This document shows positions 3,719 to 29,357 of a DNA stretch of 64,000 bases, piece by piece. Source of the stretch: Candidatus Woesearchaeota archaeon (GTDB lineage: Archaea > Nanobdellota > Nanobdellia > Pacearchaeales > GW2011-AR1). A program made the position numbers and the translations under genes. Each line of letters opens with the position of its first letter. Position 1 is the stretch's first letter. The notes beneath the pieces are model-generated. The model ran no database searches, was not told the DNA's origin, and worked only from the letters and a program-made list of their open reading frames with translations. The stretch lies in contig CAZJPE010000005.1 of assembly GCA_964547875.1 (NCBI GenBank), positions 27,543-91,542 on the forward strand, written 5' to 3'.

Positions 3719-3904
3719 CACCCATAAACACCCCTATCGTCGATAAACGAAGTTTACCTTACCTTGCTTAAAAAATCAACATTCTTTTCCTAGCTCTTCA
3801 ATCCTCTCAAATATGAAATTAAAACCAGACAAAAGAGAAACTTATTTAAACATACTCTTCTTTTAATTAAAACATTTTCAATAGAATGAAAGGAGGTAAT
3901 TATA

Positions 3905-4264
3905 ATGGCAAATACACAAAAAACCTTTGCACTGATTTTAGGCATAGTATTGCTTCTCGTTGGCATAATTGGATTTATCAACAATCCTTTAGTAGGCGAT
4001 AACAGATATTTTGGAACAAATACCTTTCAAGACATACTGCATCTAATAGCAGGCGCAATAGGCGTCTATGTCGGAACAAAAGGAAGGGGCCCAACATACA
4101 ATTCAACAATAGGATGGATTGGCATTGTTTTAGGCATTCTTGGATTTATTCCAGGAATAAAAGGCCTGCTGCTTAATTGGTTTAATATAAACACAGAGAT
4201 AAGCGTTTTACACGTAGTAATAGGGATTGTTGCGCTGGCAGTCTATTACAAAGCAAGCAAGTAA
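3905..4264 (+). CDS. Small integral membrane protein (3-4 TM helices).
   Basis: Highly hydrophobic and Gly-rich (ILGIVLLLVGIIGFINNP..., IGWIGIVLGILGFIPGIKG). RBS-like aggaggt lies 8 nt upstream. Confidence 0.5.
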   Translation: MANTQKTFALILGIVLLLVGIIGFINNPLVGDNRYFGTNTFQDILHLIAGAIGVYVGTKGRGPTYNSTIGWIGIVLGILGFIPGIKGLLLNWFNINTEISVLHVVIGIVALAVYYKASK

Positions 4265-9162: not shown

Positions 9163-9369
9163 TTATTTTTCAATTATTTTCTTTAATATCTTTCGTCTTC
9201 TTTGCCTGTCTTTCTCCATAGAGGCAATTTCTTTCTCATAATAATCTACTAATTCTCTTTTACCTTCTTCAAATGTGATTTCTTTTTTGCCCCCATGAAG
9301 TTCTATCTGTTTTTCTATAGAGATAATGCTTTTCTCAGGTCTTTTTCTTCTTTTTGCCATATTCCTCAA
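9163..9369 (-). CDS. Small highly basic/acidic protein, module partner of the AbrB-NTase gene. Paralog of 28288-28473.
   Basis: 68 aa, KRRKRPEK..., conserved VDYYEKEI. Start overlaps the 3' end of 9335-10129 by 35 nt. Confidence 0.45.
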   Translation of the reverse strand: MRNMAKRRKRPEKSIISIEKQIELHGGKKEITFEEGKRELVDYYEKEIASMEKDRQRRRKILKKIIEK

Positions 9370-10129
9370 TCTCCCTTTCTAATAAACCGACTAATTTTTC
9401 AGCTAATGAAATATCAATCTTCTCTTTTATTTTTTTATTATCCCTAATTAAACTATAAATTCTATATAGCTTTTCATATTCTGCTTTAGTTATTCCTAGC
9501 ATCGTAATTAACCATCTCTCAAATTCTCTATTTGAATATTTCTTTTCATTCAATATAGACCTAATGATATAAAGCCCTCTTAATCTCAATAAGGATGAAT
9601 AAATAACTGCTTTTGATTTTAACATTGAGCTATCTAATTTATCCATTTCAATCAGTTCCTTATTTATCCCAATCATTTTTTTAGAATCTTTGAAATATAA
9701 TTTAAAAGAATTTATATTTAGTTTAATAAAATTTTTCAATTCCTCCAAAAGCCCCTTATTTAGAATAACTTTAGCGTCTATCAACTTAGAATAAATTATT
9801 TCTGGGCGCTCTTTCAGAACAGAAACAATGGCATTTAATGTAGTAATAATCACCTCATATTTTCCCATTTTTATCTTTTTATTAATATTATTAGTTATAA
9901 CTAGTATATCTATGTCACTTTCTTTAGTTTTTTCTCCCCGCGCATAGCTTCCAACAAGATAAACTCCAATAATATCTTCAAAATATGGCTCAAGAATTTC
10001 TAAAACATCTTTTTTTATGTCTAATGGTTTTTTAACTAACTCAACTTTCGCTTTTCCATTCAGCCATTCCCTAGGAAGAATGACCCCTGCAGAATTTCCT
10101 ATTCTAACAATTTGTTTTATTAATTTCAT
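9335..10129 (-). CDS. AbrB/SpoVT-like N-terminal domain fused to a minimal nucleotidyltransferase domain plus a C-terminal helical domain. Paralog of 28448-29260.
   Basis: VRIGNSAGVILPREWL (AbrB swapped hairpin). GVYLVGSYARGEKTKESDIDILV (Pol-beta-type NTase GS...DxD). Confidence 0.6.
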   Translation of the reverse strand: MKLIKQIVRIGNSAGVILPREWLNGKAKVELVKKPLDIKKDVLEILEPYFEDIIGVYLVGSYARGEKTKESDIDILVITNNINKKIKMGKYEVIITTLNAIVSVLKERPEIIYSKLIDAKVILNKGLLEELKNFIKLNINSFKLYFKDSKKMIGINKELIEMDKLDSSMLKSKAVIYSSLLRLRGLYIIRSILNEKKYSNREFERWLITMLGITKAEYEKLYRIYSLIRDNKKIKEKIDISLAEKLVGLLEREIEEYGKKKKKT

Positions 10130-10185
10130 GTTATAACAAAGTTATAACACTATTTAAATATTACTCTATAAATTTCTTAAGAGTC

Positions 10186-10512
10186 TCACAAAAATCTCTT
10201 TAATTTTTTCCTCAATAAAACTATAAGCCGAGGATCATTCATTATATAAATATCCTTAATATTTAATATAATAATTTTTTTACCTTTAGCCTCGGAAAAG
10301 TTCTCCAAAATAAAATCCTTATGTGATTTTTCCATGCAAAAGATAATATCTGTCCACATAATAGAATGTTTATCAATTACTATAACTGATAGAGGATTTA
10401 TCTCGCATGATTTTGCCTCGTACTTTCTATTATCTCTAAACAAACCTTCTGCAGTCGGGCTTCTATTCAAATTTGCGTTGCATACAAAAAGCAGATGTTT
10501 TTTTCTTATCAT
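10186..10512 (-). CDS. Low-molecular-weight phosphotyrosine phosphatase / ArsC-like fold.
   Basis: N-terminal LLFVCNANLNRSPTAEGLF matches the CX5R P-loop of LMW-PTP. Confidence 0.5.
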   Translation of the reverse strand: MIRKKHLLFVCNANLNRSPTAEGLFRDNRKYEAKSCEINPLSVIVIDKHSIMWTDIIFCMEKSHKDFILENFSEAKGKKIIILNIKDIYIMNDPRLIVLLRKKLKRFL

Positions 10513-10514
10513 AG

Positions 10515-11339
10515 CTATCTATCACTAAATGATTTGCTTATCTTTATATTCCAGAAACTCGGCAATGGATTATCTACAAATCCTTTAAAATTATCAGAAT
10601 AAATATAAGTCAATCCTTTGTAATTTTTATATCTCTCAAATCCATTTTCAATTTTATCATAAATATCTCTAATTATCTTTCTTTCAAAATTCTTCTGCAA
10701 CAATGAGGGTTTTTTCAAAACAAGATAATCTGCCTGCCTTAATGCGTTCACGTCGATATTAGAAGAATTCTGCGATATGAATAAAACACTTATGCTTTTA
10801 TGTCTTGCTATTAAAATCAGCTCGCTTAATAATTTATTCGCACTGCTCATTGCCTTTCTCGAGCTGAACAATATTCCTCCCTCGTCAACTAAAATAAATG
10901 AATTATTTTTCGCCTGCGAAGCATCCTCAATAACTTCTATCCAGGAAGGCATTTCTTCTTTCTTAAAACCCAAGGCAAAAATCTTCTTCTTCTTTTCAGA
11001 ATATAAATTCTCAATAAAAGACAATCCAAAAGCAGTTTTTCCAGAGCCTCTTGCTCCCACAATAATTCCTATTTTACTATCAGCGCCAATAACAGAGTTT
11101 TCAAAGGAATTAAATTTTCCCCTCTCTGATTTTACAACTTTAATTTCCTGATAATCTGCAGTCATTGAAGCTCTCTTTTTTTCAATTTCTTTTTTTCTGA
11201 AAATTCTGCTTATCTCCTTAACTATGTCATAGCATCCCACTATAAAATAGTATGGTATCTTTATAATAAACCATAAGAACTTGATTAAGCTGACAAATAA
11301 GACTTTTAATAAATTAATTTTCTTTCTCTTTTTTGCCAT
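10515..11339 (-). CDS. P-loop NTPase with N-terminal TM helix (Zot/AAA-like).
   Basis: GIIVGARGSGKTAFG (Walker A). ILVDEGG (Walker B). N-terminal LLKVLFVSLIKFLWFIIKIPYYFIVG is hydrophobic. Confidence 0.5.
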   Translation of the reverse strand: MAKKRKKINLLKVLFVSLIKFLWFIIKIPYYFIVGCYDIVKEISRIFRKKEIEKKRASMTADYQEIKVVKSERGKFNSFENSVIGADSKIGIIVGARGSGKTAFGLSFIENLYSEKKKKIFALGFKKEEMPSWIEVIEDASQAKNNSFILVDEGGILFSSRKAMSSANKLLSELILIARHKSISVLFISQNSSNIDVNALRQADYLVLKKPSLLQKNFERKIIRDIYDKIENGFERYKNYKGLTYIYSDNFKGFVDNPLPSFWNIKISKSFSDR

Positions 11340-11399: not shown

Positions 11400-14186
11400 T
11401 CATCTATTTCTTCTTGCTAATGTATAATATCCAACAACTCCTAATATAATAATTACTCCAATTATCAACCATAATATGCCCTTAGATATAGGTTTGGCTT
11501 CTGAAGGAGTTTCAGTAGGGGGAGGAATTTGCGCTTGCGCAGCCTCTTCAACAACCCTCTCAATTTTTTCAGCAATTGCAAAGAAGCTAAATGACATCAA
11601 TTCTACTTCAAAATACTCGTTTTCAGAATCAGAATTTATATATTTTGTTTCTAATTCATTCCATTGATTAGAATTTACATCATACCTAAACAATACTACT
11701 TTATCTTTTGTTAGCCCATTACTAATTAGCCAAGATTTTTCAACCTGCAATGTTATCACGCCTTTCTTTATATTATTTTCCAAATTTCGTGACTGTATTT
11801 CTAAATATTTATAGACCTTCCCAGATTTCTCAACACTTACATTTACGGGCTTTCCATCATATTTTATAACAGTTACCTTTACATTTTGTGCAGGATTATT
11901 AACTTCAATTGATATTTCTTTTAATCCGATCTCCTTATCATTTATCTTCATTATTGTTACATTTCCAGGCGTTATTTTTGTCCAACTATTTGTTTTTGTA
12001 GTTTTGTTAGTTGCTGTTACAGCACCACTGCCCCCGCCCCCACTAGAGGTACTAGTAGAGGTTCCAGGAGAAGACGAAGCAGGAATGGCTGCCCCGGTTA
12101 TACTCGGTCCAGTTCCAGAAAAATGTGGCAATCTTACCCATATTTGATTTGAGGTCGTGTTGATATAACAAGGGTTTGTAATATTAAATAATGTGGAGTT
12201 AGTAGTGCAAGTTATGTTATTTAAAAGATACTGCCAATCATTTTTCTTATTAGAATAATGAGAGAAGTTTCCTGCAAAAGCAGTAGAATTCGTACCATTA
12301 ACAGTAGCATTCCATATAACATTCCAATTATCGTCATAAAAAACAGGAATACTTATGTTGACAGGTTGTGTATCATTTAATCCCGTGCTTGCAGATTCGG
12401 AATAAGGAACAGAAACTAAAACATAATCATATACTGTAGGTCCGCTAGATCCGAATCTTAAGGCAGCACTGAAATCATTTCCTGATGTTCCATTCTTTGT
12501 TTTGTCATCAAATAAAGCATCCGGCGGACCAGACGCCATCATATCAACATTTACATAGTGTACTAAAATGCCCGCTGTTCCCATTCTAAAGCTTAGTTTT
12601 CCTCCCCCAATTATTGCAGACATAGGATTAAAGTCCTGCATATTTGTAGAACTCCCTATTACACAAGCGCCAGGAGGATCCGGAACATCGCATGTCAAAT
12701 TTGAAATATAAAGCCCCATTGTTATAGACGACGAACTTAATGCGCTATCAATGGCTTGTGGATTAAATGAATTTATTGTGATGTTACTCACATTTCCATT
12801 TGCATTATTGTCAGTTATAAGCTGGGCAATAGTAGGAGCAATTCTTTTAGGAGCATAATTTCCTCCTCCTACAAAGATATTCATTTCTTTAATTCCTGTG
12901 ATATTTAATAAAGGAATTGAGAAATTTCCACTACTTGATTGTCCAACATCTTCAACCCATGTAAATTCAATTGCCCCATAATTGGAATAATCAACAGTTG
13001 TTTCAATATGCACAGAAGATTGGCTCAAACTGCTGTTTGTTGCGTTAACTAATTGGAATACTTGTTTAGCTACGCCCCTATTTTTCTTTTGGGCAAAATT
13101 ATTTGCATTGTCCAAACTAAAGTTCGAACTGGCTCCTATTAGACCGTACATTGAGAAGTTAATTCTTACCCCCGCAGCACCATAAGATAAACTTATATTA
13201 GCAACCCCGCCATAATACCGGCTTCCATTGCGCGCAGTGGCAAATAACAAATAATTCGCGGTTTCAGCAGAGGCGGGCAAGGTTATATTATAGAATCCGC
13301 TAGTAAGGTTAAAAAGATCAGTAAGTCCAGTCCCAATAAACGTGCTTAAATTAAATGGCATGGCTCCAAACGTAGCATGGACCATATTACCCGGCTCAAG
13401 CATAAACGGTACGACTGTAAACTCGTCCCAGCCACCAGTGCTCGTAACATTGCTGGCATTGATAAAACCTGTAATTTGAGGCAAACTAAGGGTTATATTA
13501 AATTGCTTATAAAGCGTTCGCGTAGTAGCATTATATCGGGATATATTCCCAGAAGTTGTAACTATATTGTAACTGTTAGTAGATGTAAAATTATTCCAAT
13601 TAAAGAAAGCAGGCAAACTTTGATTAGGAAAGACAGTAATAGAATAATTCCTATCCCTAGGAACAACTATATTCGCCTCAAGAACCCCGTCACCAAAATT
13701 ACTCGCAATTAGATAGCCGAGTGCAGAATCTTTAATTTGATAATTAAACGGAATTCTCCCTCCCGACGAATTAATTGCAGTAATATTAATTGTTCCGGCT
13801 TCTCTTAAATAAAATAAATTATTGCGTAACTGAGTAAAAACGAACACAGGGAAAGCAGGCAAACTTTGTCCAACATAATCGACATATGAACCGTTTTTAT
13901 GGGTTATAAGGGGCTCATATAACCAATTTACGCTTTCAGGAATAGTTATATTAAACCAACCGCTCGCATTTGTAGTTGTAGAATTATATCCTGCAGACAC
14001 AAAACCATTTACACCACCCGAAAAAATATTTCTCATGGTTATATTAATTATAGAATTATTCAATGCGTTTCCATTAATATCATAAACAGTCCCGTTAAAC
14101 TCAAAAGCGCTAACTAGTCCAATAGTTGCAAACATATATATTGATATCACAAAAATCAAAAAGCTCAAATATCCGGTTTTCATCAC
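11400..14186 (-). CDS. Large cell-surface glycoprotein (S-layer-like). Signal peptide, about 45 N-x-S/T sequons, Ser/Thr/Gly linker, C-terminal TM anchor.
   Basis: 928 aa. N-terminal MMKTGYLSFLIFVISIYMFATIGLVSA. STSTSSGGGGSG linker. C-terminal GILWLIIGVIIILGVVGYYTLARRNR. Confidence 0.6.
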   Translation of the reverse strand: MMKTGYLSFLIFVISIYMFATIGLVSAFEFNGTVYDINGNALNNSIINITMRNIFSGGVNGFVSAGYNSTTTNASGWFNITIPESVNWLYEPLITHKNGSYVDYVGQSLPAFPVFVFTQLRNNLFYLREAGTINITAINSSGGRIPFNYQIKDSALGYLIASNFGDGVLEANIVVPRDRNYSITVFPNQSLPAFFNWNNFTSTNSYNIVTTSGNISRYNATTRTLYKQFNITLSLPQITGFINASNVTSTGGWDEFTVVPFMLEPGNMVHATFGAMPFNLSTFIGTGLTDLFNLTSGFYNITLPASAETANYLLFATARNGSRYYGGVANISLSYGAAGVRINFSMYGLIGASSNFSLDNANNFAQKKNRGVAKQVFQLVNATNSSLSQSSVHIETTVDYSNYGAIEFTWVEDVGQSSSGNFSIPLLNITGIKEMNIFVGGGNYAPKRIAPTIAQLITDNNANGNVSNITINSFNPQAIDSALSSSSITMGLYISNLTCDVPDPPGACVIGSSTNMQDFNPMSAIIGGGKLSFRMGTAGILVHYVNVDMMASGPPDALFDDKTKNGTSGNDFSAALRFGSSGPTVYDYVLVSVPYSESASTGLNDTQPVNISIPVFYDDNWNVIWNATVNGTNSTAFAGNFSHYSNKKNDWQYLLNNITCTTNSTLFNITNPCYINTTSNQIWVRLPHFSGTGPSITGAAIPASSSPGTSTSTSSGGGGSGAVTATNKTTKTNSWTKITPGNVTIMKINDKEIGLKEISIEVNNPAQNVKVTVIKYDGKPVNVSVEKSGKVYKYLEIQSRNLENNIKKGVITLQVEKSWLISNGLTKDKVVLFRYDVNSNQWNELETKYINSDSENEYFEVELMSFSFFAIAEKIERVVEEAAQAQIPPPTETPSEAKPISKGILWLIIGVIIILGVVGYYTLARRNR

Positions 14187-14248
14187 ATCTCTTTATAATT
14201 CCATTAGAAAACAGAACTTTATAAATCTTTTTTTATTTAGAATCCTAA

Positions 14249-14320
14249 GCCTCTATAGCTCAGTGGTAGAGCGCGAGTTTCGTAAACTTGAGGTCGGGGG
14301 TTCGAATCCCCCTAGAGGCT
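14249..14320 (+). tRNA. tRNA-Thr (anticodon CGU). No encoded CCA, no intron.
   Basis: Acceptor GCCUCUA/UAGAGGC. D-arm GCUCAGUGGUAGAGC. Anticodon loop UUCGUAA. T-arm GGGGGUUCGAAUCCCCC. Confidence 0.85.
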
Positions 14321-14430
14321 TTATAACAAAAAACCAAAAAAAGAAGAATCAACTATAGAAAATAAAAAGCTTTAAAAATATCCCCTATCTATTTATTTGG
14401 AATTAAATTTAAATAAAAAACATTGAGAAG

Positions 14431-28287: not shown

Positions 28288-28473
28288 TTATCTTTCAAGT
28301 TGCCTTTCTTTTCTTCTCTTAACTTTATCTAAATTAGAAATTTCCTTCTCATAATAATCTGCTCTTTCTATGTTATCCTCTTCTATTGCAATTTCTCTTT
28401 TTCTTTTATGAATATTTATCTGCTCTTTCAAAGACGCAATTCCTTTCTCAAGCCTTTTTGATCTTTTCACCAT
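28288..28473 (-). CDS. Small basic protein, partner of the AbrB-NTase gene. Paralog of 9163-9369.
   Basis: 61 aa. ADYYEKEIS is conserved with 9163-9369 (VDYYEKEIA). Overlaps the 3' end of 28448-29260 by 26 nt. Confidence 0.45.
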   Translation of the reverse strand: MVKRSKRLEKGIASLKEQINIHKRKREIAIEEDNIERADYYEKEISNLDKVKRRKERQLER

Positions 28474-29260
28474 ATTTTTTTATTTCCTCTCGAAGAAGGT
28501 TAATTAATTTTTCAATTAATTCTATTCTAACTTTTTCTTTAATTTTTTTATTATTTTTTATGCTTTTATAAAAATCATAAATTTTATTAATCTCTTCCTC
28601 ACTCAATTCAGTTTTATAAATTAGCCACTTCCTAAATTCGTTATTAAAATATTTTTTATTTTTTAAAATACAATTCATCATATAAATGCCTCTTAATCTT
28701 AACAATAAGGAATAAATAATTTCTTTAGATTCGAGATTTTTGCCTTTTATTCTATCTAATTCAACAATCTTTTTGTTAATGCCCATTATTCTTTTGCATT
28801 CTTTAATATAATTACTAAAATTTTTTAAAGAAATATTTATAGAAATAAGTTCTTCCAATAACGACTTATTAATTATAGGTTTAGCTTCTAATAAACTAGG
28901 CAATATCATAATAGGACTTTTTTTAATTGTACTTTTTATGCTTTTAAGGGCATATATATCAATATCATAAATTCCAGAGATTATGTGTTTCCTGATATTT
29001 TTTGAGATAGCAATAATATCTATGTCGGAATCTGCTCGCTGTTCGTTTCTTGCATAACTCCCTACTAAATAAATGCCGATAATGTCGTTTAAATAAGGAT
29101 CAAGAATGTTTAAAATCTCATTTTTAATCTCGTTAGTTCTGTCTATCAAAATAATCTTGACTTGCTTTCCAAGCCATTCTCTAGGCAATAAAACTCCAGC
29201 ACCATTGCCCCATCTAACAACATTTAACATTTCTTCCATGTTTAAACATAGTTTAAACAT
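28448..29260 (-). CDS. AbrB/SpoVT-like plus nucleotidyltransferase fusion protein. Paralog of 9335-10129.
   Basis: VVRWGNGAGVLLPREWL. GIYLVGSYARNEQRADSDIDIIAI. About 45% identity to 9335-10129 over the full length. Confidence 0.6.
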   Translation of the reverse strand: MFKLCLNMEEMLNVVRWGNGAGVLLPREWLGKQVKIILIDRTNEIKNEILNILDPYLNDIIGIYLVGSYARNEQRADSDIDIIAISKNIRKHIISGIYDIDIYALKSIKSTIKKSPIMILPSLLEAKPIINKSLLEELISINISLKNFSNYIKECKRIMGINKKIVELDRIKGKNLESKEIIYSLLLRLRGIYMMNCILKNKKYFNNEFRKWLIYKTELSEEEINKIYDFYKSIKNNKKIKEKVRIELIEKLINLLREEIKKYGEKIKKA

Positions 29261-29357
29261 CTTTATAAACCTTTTGACATAAAAAGTATTAAAAACCTTC
29301 TCGTATAGATACCCTTATGGTTGCTGGATTCATAAAAACCCGCCGGAGGTTTTTATT

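Follow-up and report, generated by a model that had tools for sequence, protein, structure and literature searches.

Gene organization of the two modules

The 64-kb stretch of DNA analysed here (the window) comes from a Candidatus Woesearchaeota archaeon, is AT-rich (33% G+C) and carries the same two-gene unit at two minus-strand loci, module 1 from position 9163 and module 2 from position 28288. In each module a large gene, whose product of 263-264 amino acids (aa) combines a MazE/AbrB-like domain, a nucleotidyltransferase domain and an alpha-helical domain, overlaps a small gene for a highly charged protein of about 60 aa. A duplicated module of this kind, on the minus strand and with the same architecture in both copies, had been proposed from the sequence in an earlier reading of this DNA (the original prediction), and both loci were confirmed; the succession of an AbrB/MazE-like, a minimal-type nucleotidyltransferase and a helical domain is likewise borne out by NF033496, PF01909 and an AlphaFold2 model, and the small charged partner does overlap the large gene. 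The two large proteins are homologous, as had been stated, with an identity of 49% over 259 aa (E 1e-74) rather than the 45% or so first given. The small proteins are 46% identical over 61 aa (E 1e-15), with the motif DYYEKEI kept in both. For comparison, 174 related loci were obtained by scanning one genome per species, and 80 of them were kept for the locus analyses. The features of the two modules are as follows.

Module 1
10151..10158, minus strand: TATA box, TTTAAATA, read from the sequence and likewise placed in most of the 80 related loci
10130..10148, minus strand: putative operator, GTTATAAC-TTT-GTTATAAC, two identical 8-bp palindromes with centres 11 bp apart, abutting the ATG
9335..10129, minus strand: large gene 1 (264 aa)
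10022..10129, minus strand: N-domain of large gene 1, residues 1-36, MazE/AbrB-like (DUF2080), motif VRIGNSAGVILPREW; NF033496, 23.2 bits
9758..10021, minus strand: Pol-beta-type nucleotidyltransferase domain of large gene 1, residues 37-124; PF01909, 41.9 bits; G60-S61-X10-D72-x-D74 intact
9335..9757, minus strand: alpha-helical C-domain of large gene 1, KNTase/HalB type by AlphaFold2 model (predicted local distance difference test, pLDDT, above 90) and Foldseek, residues 125-264 plus stop
9163..9360, minus strand: small gene 1 (65 aa plus stop), predicted basic helical-hairpin partner; gene call in public data (P0126)

Module 2
29262..29269, minus strand: TATA box, TTTATAAA
29240..29258, minus strand: putative operator of type B, GTTTAAAC-TAT-GTTTAAAC, abutting the ATG at 29239
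28448..29239, minus strand: large gene 2 (263 aa, corrected start), same three domains, type B N-domain VVRWGNGAGVLLPREW
28288..28473, minus strand: small gene 2 (61 aa plus stop)

The start of small gene 1 is most likely the ATG at 9360, which gives a 65-aa product beginning with MAKRRKR, and not the TTG at 9369; exactly this protein exists in public gene calls as P0126. For large gene 2 the most likely start is the ATG at 29239 (263 aa), since the seven extra codons (MFKLCLN) of the listed open reading frame (ORF), 28448-29260 with 270 aa, are the operator palindromes read as codons. With the corrected starts, the small and large genes overlap by 26 nucleotides (nt) in both modules.

Domains and conserved residues of the large protein

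The central part of the large protein is recognised by the Pfam family NTP_transf_2 (PF01909), with 41.9 bits for copy 1 and 30.9 bits for copy 2 against a cutoff of 21, and the N-terminus by the NCBIfam model DUF2080_fam_acc (NF033496), with 23.2 and 35.4 bits, respectively, against a cutoff of 22; Pfam PF09853 reaches 18.4 bits on the same N-domain, slightly below its cutoff of 21.5. The PADLOC matches of the large protein are confined to the nucleotidyltransferase motif region. In the AlphaFold2 model, obtained with 51 homologues in the alignment (pLDDT 90.7, predicted template modelling score 0.79), a short beta-rich N-domain (residues 1-36) is followed by an alpha/beta nucleotidyltransferase domain and, from residue 125, by five long helices. 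The helical C-domain is modelled with a pLDDT above 90, and strands 2-6 and 26-30 of the N-domain, in the monomer, with 65-81. Among the structures in the PDB, Foldseek returned first the kanamycin nucleotidyltransferase ANT(4') (1kny; E 4e-8, 242 aligned columns, template modelling (TM) score 0.52-0.54) and next HalB of the Hailong system (9dbj; E 2e-7, about 220 aligned columns, TM 0.50-0.59 on the target), while MntA (7bxo) was matched over the nucleotidyltransferase domain only (E 1e-3). The MntA equivalog NF047752 scores 30.3 and 25.8 bits, below its cutoff of 60, and the large proteins, with their three domains in 263-264 aa, are not of the single-domain MntA type of less than 150 aa.

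Across the 80 genomic homologues, N12, G60, S61, R64, S71, D72, D74, Y177 and Y225 are invariant, and Y91, N124 and R184 nearly so. The catalytic motif GSX10DXD, formed by G60-S61, ten residues and D72-x-D74, is intact in every one of them. The N-domain has the motif V-[KR]-x-[WV]-G-N-S-x-x-V-x-[IL]-P, and a profile built from 36 N-domains matched only five chains in the PDB, all of them AbrB-fold antitoxins (MazE, PemI-like and VapB), weakly (E 0.3-0.65) and with 'VvkvGNSAGVlLP' aligned to the MazE 'VKRWGNSPAVRIP'. For the C-domain no credible match was obtained from any of Pfam, NCBIfam and PADLOC at E values of up to 10. A check for the HEPN motif Rx4-6H, suggested with the original prediction, found no conserved motif in either the C-domain or the small protein: in the former the motif occurs incidentally, at scattered positions, in 13 of the 80 sequences, the most His-rich column holding His in 24 of 80 and no His being conserved, and in the latter an Rx4H anchored on a conserved His is present in just 7 of 75 sequences. 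The C-domain resembles HEPN/KNTase_C domains in its modelled fold only.

In the large protein the final helix (…AEKLxxLLEKEIxxY) is so similar to the 'ADYYEKEIxxL' stretch of the small protein that MAFFT misplaced small proteins there; the likeness may be compositional, or may hint at related helices or at competition for one site.

The small protein

No credible match to the small protein was obtained from Pfam, NCBIfam or PADLOC with E values of up to 10 allowed, and a profile search of 1.84 billion representative proteins recovered 156 clusters, almost all of them stand-alone proteins of about 60 aa. It is strongly basic (isoelectric point, pI, about 9.9, with 19-21 K/R versus 13 D/E), above all in its N-terminus (KRKKRLxKGIxS). 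In the 75 small proteins that could be paired with a large one, the most conserved positions are Lys25 (74/75), Tyr40 (73/75) and His22 (71/75), followed by an aromatic residue at position 41 (71/75), Ile45 (65/75) and Glu44 (63/75). At one of the 80 loci (L042, 2239-3177, plus strand) the large and small proteins are fused in a single 312-aa ORF (P0276), which could reflect either a genuine but rare fusion or an indel within the A-rich overlap; no second large-small fusion was recovered by a search specific to the junction. In the AlphaFold2 model of this natural fusion the small part is predicted as a helical hairpin (pLDDT about 80-90), near the tip of which, judging by helical geometry, His22/Lys25 and Tyr40/41/Glu44 would face each other. 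The fusion model as a whole (pLDDT 90) has the same Foldseek matches as the large protein alone.

A domain resembling the small protein was also found in another setting. An orphan Rhs-type cassette at locus L081 (268-768, plus strand) encodes a protein, P0275, that consists of the end of an Rhs core, a hydrophobic stretch and a small-protein-like C-terminal domain. This domain occupies the toxin-tip position and scores 42.5 bits against the profile of the 75 sequences, ungapped over profile residues 4-61, and the N-terminal part is similar to large Rhs proteins at the end of their core. P0275 is followed, where an immunity gene would be expected, by an acidic helical ORF. A metagenome scan for more examples returned the Rhs-core part only, so that P0275 is a single such sequence.

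Two variants of the small gene were observed in addition. Two loci (L059, 1353-1607, and L069, 4719-4976) have in common about 23 inserted aa (…YRKQNKTNFIFCP.NSFN…) within the hairpin loop, immediately ahead of the conserved YW-x-KEI motif. Just upstream of the module at L005, on the opposite strand (3845-4000, minus), there is a 51-aa ORF like the C-terminal half of the small protein (…DYWEKEIKSFKKKKEEQERKLKK), which may be a remnant of another cassette.

Promoter and putative operators

Immediately upstream of the large gene, copy 1 reads TTTAAATA-gt-GTTATAAC-ttt-GTTATAAC-ATG and copy 2 reads TTTATAAA-gat-GTTTAAAC-tat-GTTTAAAC-ATG. The same layout, with a TATA box, an 8-bp palindrome, 3 nt, a second 8-bp palindrome and the ATG, and with palindrome centres 11 bp apart, is found at about 76 of the 80 loci. 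The tandem-palindrome pattern occurs once per related locus and, in the 64-kb window, at the two modules only, where 0.13 occurrences would be expected by chance. The palindrome varies with the N-domain: type B proteins, with W before GNS, have palindromes of the GTTTAAAC type in 30 of 30 cases, non-W proteins have GTTATAAC at both sites in 39 of 46, and the subtype in which the gene order is inverted carries a third palindrome pair (GTAAGTAC-like) at its operon promoter, in front of the small gene. The window itself holds one type A and one type B cassette. It is thus strongly suggested by the sequences that each N-domain subtype has its own palindrome.

Given a distance of about 25 nt between the centre of the TATA box and the ATG downstream of it, a leaderless or near-leaderless transcript is probable, and a protein bound to the putative operator, in the interval between TATA box and ATG, would be expected from archaeal promoter geometry to block the promoter core. 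That the cassette is autoregulated, the large protein acting as a putative repressor of its own promoter, is well supported by this arrangement.

Distribution, inheritance and age of the duplication

Homologues of the large protein number more than 1000, and the 120 listed are all 250-285 aa long. They come from metagenome-assembled genomes (MAGs) of Pacearchaeota, Woesearchaeota and Nanoarchaeota, and the loci of the scan of one genome per species are nearly all from DPANN MAGs. A complete cassette with its operator is also present at L048, on a contig (JAFCCB010000002) binned as a Candidatus Dojkabacteria bacterium of the candidate phyla radiation (CPR), which may be a mis-binned archaeal contig or a transfer outside DPANN.

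The small gene, or a remnant of it, is present at 80 of 80 loci. A recognisable small ORF lies directly downstream of the large gene and on the same strand in 73, five of these ORFs being truncated or frameshifted; in four loci a frameshift or an in-frame stop breaks the small frame, in two the small gene is directly upstream of the large one (inverted order), and one is the fusion already mentioned. In total, at nine of the 80 loci (about 11%) the small ORF is broken while the large ORF next to it is intact and catalytically complete. The overlaps between the two genes are mostly of 4-38 nt and use both alternative frames, which favours translational coupling and opposes a programmed frameshift; such a frameshift across the A-rich overlap was rejected in view of the overlaps in both frames and of the single fused ORF at L042. 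The mean identity among the large proteins of the 80 loci is about 41%, and the pairwise identities of large and small proteins correlate (Mantel r = 0.49, a value reached in 0 of 999 permutations). The cassette is inherited as a block.

This block inheritance agrees with the claim that the module was copied as a unit, the copying itself being old and not recent. Copy 2 is 82% identical, and copy 1 62% identical, to a protein of another assembly. The duplication, or a separate acquisition, therefore predates these genomes, since both copies have closer relatives elsewhere than in each other (49%), and for the same reason a recent duplication is ruled out. Different subtypes share a genome or assembly in the window, at L046, at L061 and at L066 with L080, and one assembly holds two identical copies (L038 and L039), while most assemblies in the sample have a single locus.

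The genomic context of the cassette is variable. Among 131 flanking proteins, 120 Pfam families were matched, none of them more than three times and mostly housekeeping, and a conserved third gene or a defence island was consequently rejected, as the flanks are unrelated housekeeping genes. A search of viral contigs found no true family member, and the fold matches in BFVD are generic nucleotidyltransferases; on this basis an origin from viruses or mobile elements appears unlikely. Two kinds of gene were seen repeatedly in the vicinity: genes for a winged-helix domain fused to a minimal nucleotidyltransferase (about 175 aa), not more than 1-2 kb from the cassette in five loci (L061 4017-4565, L068 3943-4467, L020 1702-2292 and others), and RelE-like toxin and antitoxin pairs near the cassette in seven loci.

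Proposed mechanism

It is well supported by the sequence that the first product of the cassette would be an active nucleotidyltransferase with a MazE-type DNA-binding domain, encoded in a putatively self-repressed, leaderless operon. Beyond this, the reading that we tentatively put forward, with a probability of roughly 0.4, is that of an autorepressed, type VII toxin-antitoxin-like cassette. According to this proposal, dimers of the N-domain would bind the two tandem 8-bp palindromes between the TATA box and the leaderless ATG, a step for which the palindromes, in covarying with the N-domain subtype, speak indirectly, and this binding would shut off the module's own promoter. The second gene, which overlaps the first and is probably translationally coupled to it, would supply the 60-aa basic helical hairpin. 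The enzyme would then act on its small partner, just as HepT is the target of MntA in type VII systems, transferring nucleotides to the near-invariant Tyr40 within the His22-Lys25-Tyr40 patch of the hairpin, and the nucleotidylation would hold the small basic effector, the presumed toxin, in an inactive state. A fall of the enzyme or of ATP would set the effector free and lift the repression of the promoter.

A type VII-like model is suggested by the antitoxin-like gene order, by the nine broken small ORFs beside an intact enzyme and by the match of the small protein to an Rhs toxin tip. The generic traits of type II-style toxin-antitoxin systems are likewise present, namely overlapping genes, a putative self-operator and variable context and copy number. 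The toxin role of the small protein and the nucleotidylation of a tyrosine are proposed by analogy. MntA has been reported to add three AMPs to Tyr104 of HepT by means of its GSX10DXD motif (PMC7641770), and HalB, which is a tetramer, primes oligo-dA on a tyrosine of its own and restrains its partner. Both relatives use tyrosine hydroxyls, and an action of the enzyme on its partner is inferred for this reason. In a wider version of the proposal, which we regard as doubtful, the cassette would be a DPANN-wide enzymatic 'guard' of a novel kind, in which a MazE-fused KNTase/HalB-type enzyme neutralises a 60-aa basic non-HEPN hairpin by tyrosine nucleotidylation or by a sequestering oligonucleotide, and the subtype operators insulate paralogous cassettes from one another.

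Several points weigh against a toxin-antitoxin-like cassette. A soluble two-helix hairpin would be an unusual toxin, and the small protein matches neither a toxin family nor any other family in Pfam, NCBIfam or PADLOC. The cassette is unusually well conserved for a toxin-antitoxin system and was not found on viral contigs. Moreover, the large family, compared by description only, probably corresponds to cls.004259 (representative NEQ050), a DPANN-specific family of a minimal nucleotidyltransferase (MNT) domain, described as 'MNT fused to HEPN', that is present in 36 of 67 DPANN genomes in a housekeeping context (Makarova, Wolf & Koonin 2019, PMC6393860); if the two are the same, this frequency and context apply to the cassette. 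The authors of that survey of archaeal 'dark matter' considered the conservation of cls.004259 unusual for a toxin-antitoxin system (PMC6393860). The broken small ORFs could be errors of MAG assembly, the link to Rhs proteins is a single sequence that is without Lys25 and has Trp-Tyr in place of Tyr-Tyr/Trp at positions 40-41, and the invariant Y177 and Y225 of the large protein could be the acceptors instead. The original prediction of an unusual, possibly new toxin-antitoxin-like configuration thus holds as to several toxin-antitoxin-like features; as to its novelty, the cassette belongs to a conserved DPANN family with more than 1000 homologues, the enzyme part of which had probably been flagged before.

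Alternative explanations

The explanation that survives best beside the type VII-like cassette, although it seems unlikely on balance, is a lineage-specific housekeeping or regulatory nucleotidylation without a toxin. The hairpin would then be a nucleic-acid- or ribosome-binding factor tuned by the enzyme, perhaps according to the ATP level, and the operon would be under negative feedback. The unusual conservation in more than 1000 full-length homologues, the housekeeping genes around the cassette in related loci and in the window, the lack of members on viral contigs and the single locus in most sampled assemblies are all in keeping with such a role, and for the probable match cls.004259, with its 36 of 67 DPANN genomes, 'some important role' has been suggested by the authors (PMC6393860). 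It would account less well for the roughly 11% of loci in which the small ORF is broken and the enzyme intact, for the presence of several subtypes with separate operators within some genomes and for the absence of synteny. In addition, the standard layout of antitoxins has just this combination of a MazE-type domain and tandem operators at the promoter core, and the small-protein-like domain at an Rhs toxin tip points elsewhere.

An inhibitory signal like that of the Hailong system is improbable. Here the enzyme would prime on its own Y177 or Y225 and make an oligonucleotide, and the small protein would bind this product and stay inactive until it is destroyed, for instance by a viral nuclease. 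HalB is among the two best structural matches of the large protein (TM 0.50-0.59 on the target) and the best NCBIfam enzyme match of copy 2 (33.6 bits over 100 residues); it primes itself on a tyrosine and negatively regulates its partner. The partner found here is strongly basic (pI 9.9), and the tandem operators would suit a tetramer, which HalB is. However, the HalB model score is far under its cutoff of 190, no membrane effector like HalA is encoded in the module or among conserved neighbours, HalB lacks a DNA-binding domain, and the sequence offers nothing that would speak for a polymer product.

Two-lobed nucleotidyltransferase toxins paired with small helical antitoxins exist in the MenAT and AbiE systems. 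A toxin-antitoxin pair with reversed roles, the nucleotidyltransferase being the toxin, like the tRNA-modifying MenT or AbiEii, and the small helical protein its inhibitor, would have this precedent, and the small gene does come first in two loci. We nevertheless consider it quite improbable, given that the nine loci with a broken small gene keep a full-length enzyme with every invariant residue, that the MazE-like DNA-binding domain on the enzyme marks the antitoxin position, and that the structures of MenT and AbiEii are outside the top 50 fold matches. Finally, an antibiotic-modifying enzyme, that is, an aminoglycoside nucleotidyltransferase (ANT) with a built-in regulator, can practically be set aside in spite of the best fold match, to ANT(4') (E 4e-8, TM 0.52), and of weak ANT(9)/ANT(4') NCBIfam matches, as the ANT models score 12-29 bits against cutoffs of 340-400 with identities of 10-13%, the obligate small partner and the self-operator are foreign to ANT genes, and the family is confined to DPANN archaea.

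Tiny DPANN genomes hold few lineage-specific conserved genes, of which the cassette appears to be one, and an acknowledged unknown. Its obligate partner gene, absent from family libraries, the MazE-like domain of the enzyme and the strongly conserved operator of each subtype make the question of its role testable, and short defined DNA sites, a candidate acceptor tyrosine and mutable catalytic residues are now to hand. If nucleotidylation does neutralise a hairpin toxin, a new toxin class would be added to type VII systems, and this would be a rare instance of streamlined symbionts keeping an addiction or defence module. Should the wider guard cassette prove true, the logic of type VII or Hailong-like systems would reach a further class of toxins and also archaea with the smallest genomes, in which it could serve virus defence or control the relationship of symbiont and host.

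Neighbouring genes in the window

The genes flanking module 1 are unrelated to those flanking module 2, as had been noted in the original prediction. The archaeal housekeeping genes of the window include those for ArgRS, the proteasome, PCNA, the archaeal CCA-adding enzyme, FttA and OapB/OapC, as well as pilus genes. OapB and OapC (PF09845/PF09846) are origin-associated proteins, and the region may adjoin a replication origin. Upstream of module 1 by 56 nt and on the same strand there is a 108-aa gene like a low-molecular-weight phosphotyrosine phosphatase (10186-10512, minus; PF01451, 29 bits, N-terminal part only), a curious neighbour of a possible tyrosine-modifying enzyme, which is not repeated as a neighbour among the 80 related loci. 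A Zot-like P-loop ATPase that has a membrane segment at its N-terminus is encoded at 10515-11339 (minus), adjoining the gene for a 928-aa Asn/Ser/Thr-rich surface (S-layer-like) protein (11400-14186, minus), and a tRNA-Thr(CGU) lies at 14248-14321.

Comparison with known systems

Several known systems share part of the organization described here. With the type VII system HepT/MntA the cassette has in common a two-gene operon in which the nucleotidyltransferase comes first, an intact GSX10DXD motif and the fold of the nucleotidyltransferase domain; however, the partner is a 60-aa hairpin and not a HEPN RNase, without an RX4HXY motif, the large protein has an extra helical C-domain and a DNA-binding N-domain, and the MntA model gives 26-30 bits against a cutoff of 60. 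HalB of the Hailong system has the same two-domain fold, nucleotidyltransferase plus helical, and is likewise the first or regulatory gene of a two-gene module. Nevertheless, the HalB model NF051895 scores 24.8 bits for copy 1 and 33.6 bits for copy 2 against its cutoff of 190, HalB is bacterial and without a MazE-like domain whereas the present family is from DPANN archaea, and the partner is soluble and tiny whereas HalA is a transmembrane ion channel. ANT(4') and its relatives, with a nucleotidyltransferase and a helical C-domain, are the best overall fold match, but differ in their 10-13% identity, in model scores far under the cutoffs and in having neither a partner gene nor a DNA-binding domain.

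At the N-terminus, the likeness is to the MazE/AbrB antitoxins, the motif aligning to the MazE 'VKRWGNSPAVRIP' and standing, as in these, at the N-terminus of the first gene together with palindromic operators. MazE and VapB end in a short tail that binds the toxin, whereas here a complete enzyme of 225 aa takes the place of the tail, and DUF2080 proper consists of small stand-alone proteins encoded beside transposases. FhepTA of Shewanella, in which MNT and HEPN are fused, has been shown to carry out self-directed oligoAMPylation on a tyrosine (PMC13000451); it resembles the large protein in joining a nucleotidyltransferase and a HEPN-type helical domain in one chain, and provides a precedent for the invariant Y177/Y225. 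Unlike the family described here, which has no RNase motif and a separate partner and was not found on viral contigs, FhepTA is a one-gene system carried by mobile elements, and its HEPN RNase motif is active.

The closest description is that of cls.004259, which is also restricted to DPANN, also joins a HEPN-like helical domain to a minimal nucleotidyltransferase in a single chain, lies in a housekeeping context and is unusually conserved for a toxin-antitoxin-like gene. Its description has no MazE/AbrB N-domain, no obligate small partner gene and no promoter palindromes. The enzyme part of the cassette had probably been recorded already; the subtype-specific operator, the MazE-like domain and the obligate small partner appear to be new to the literature.

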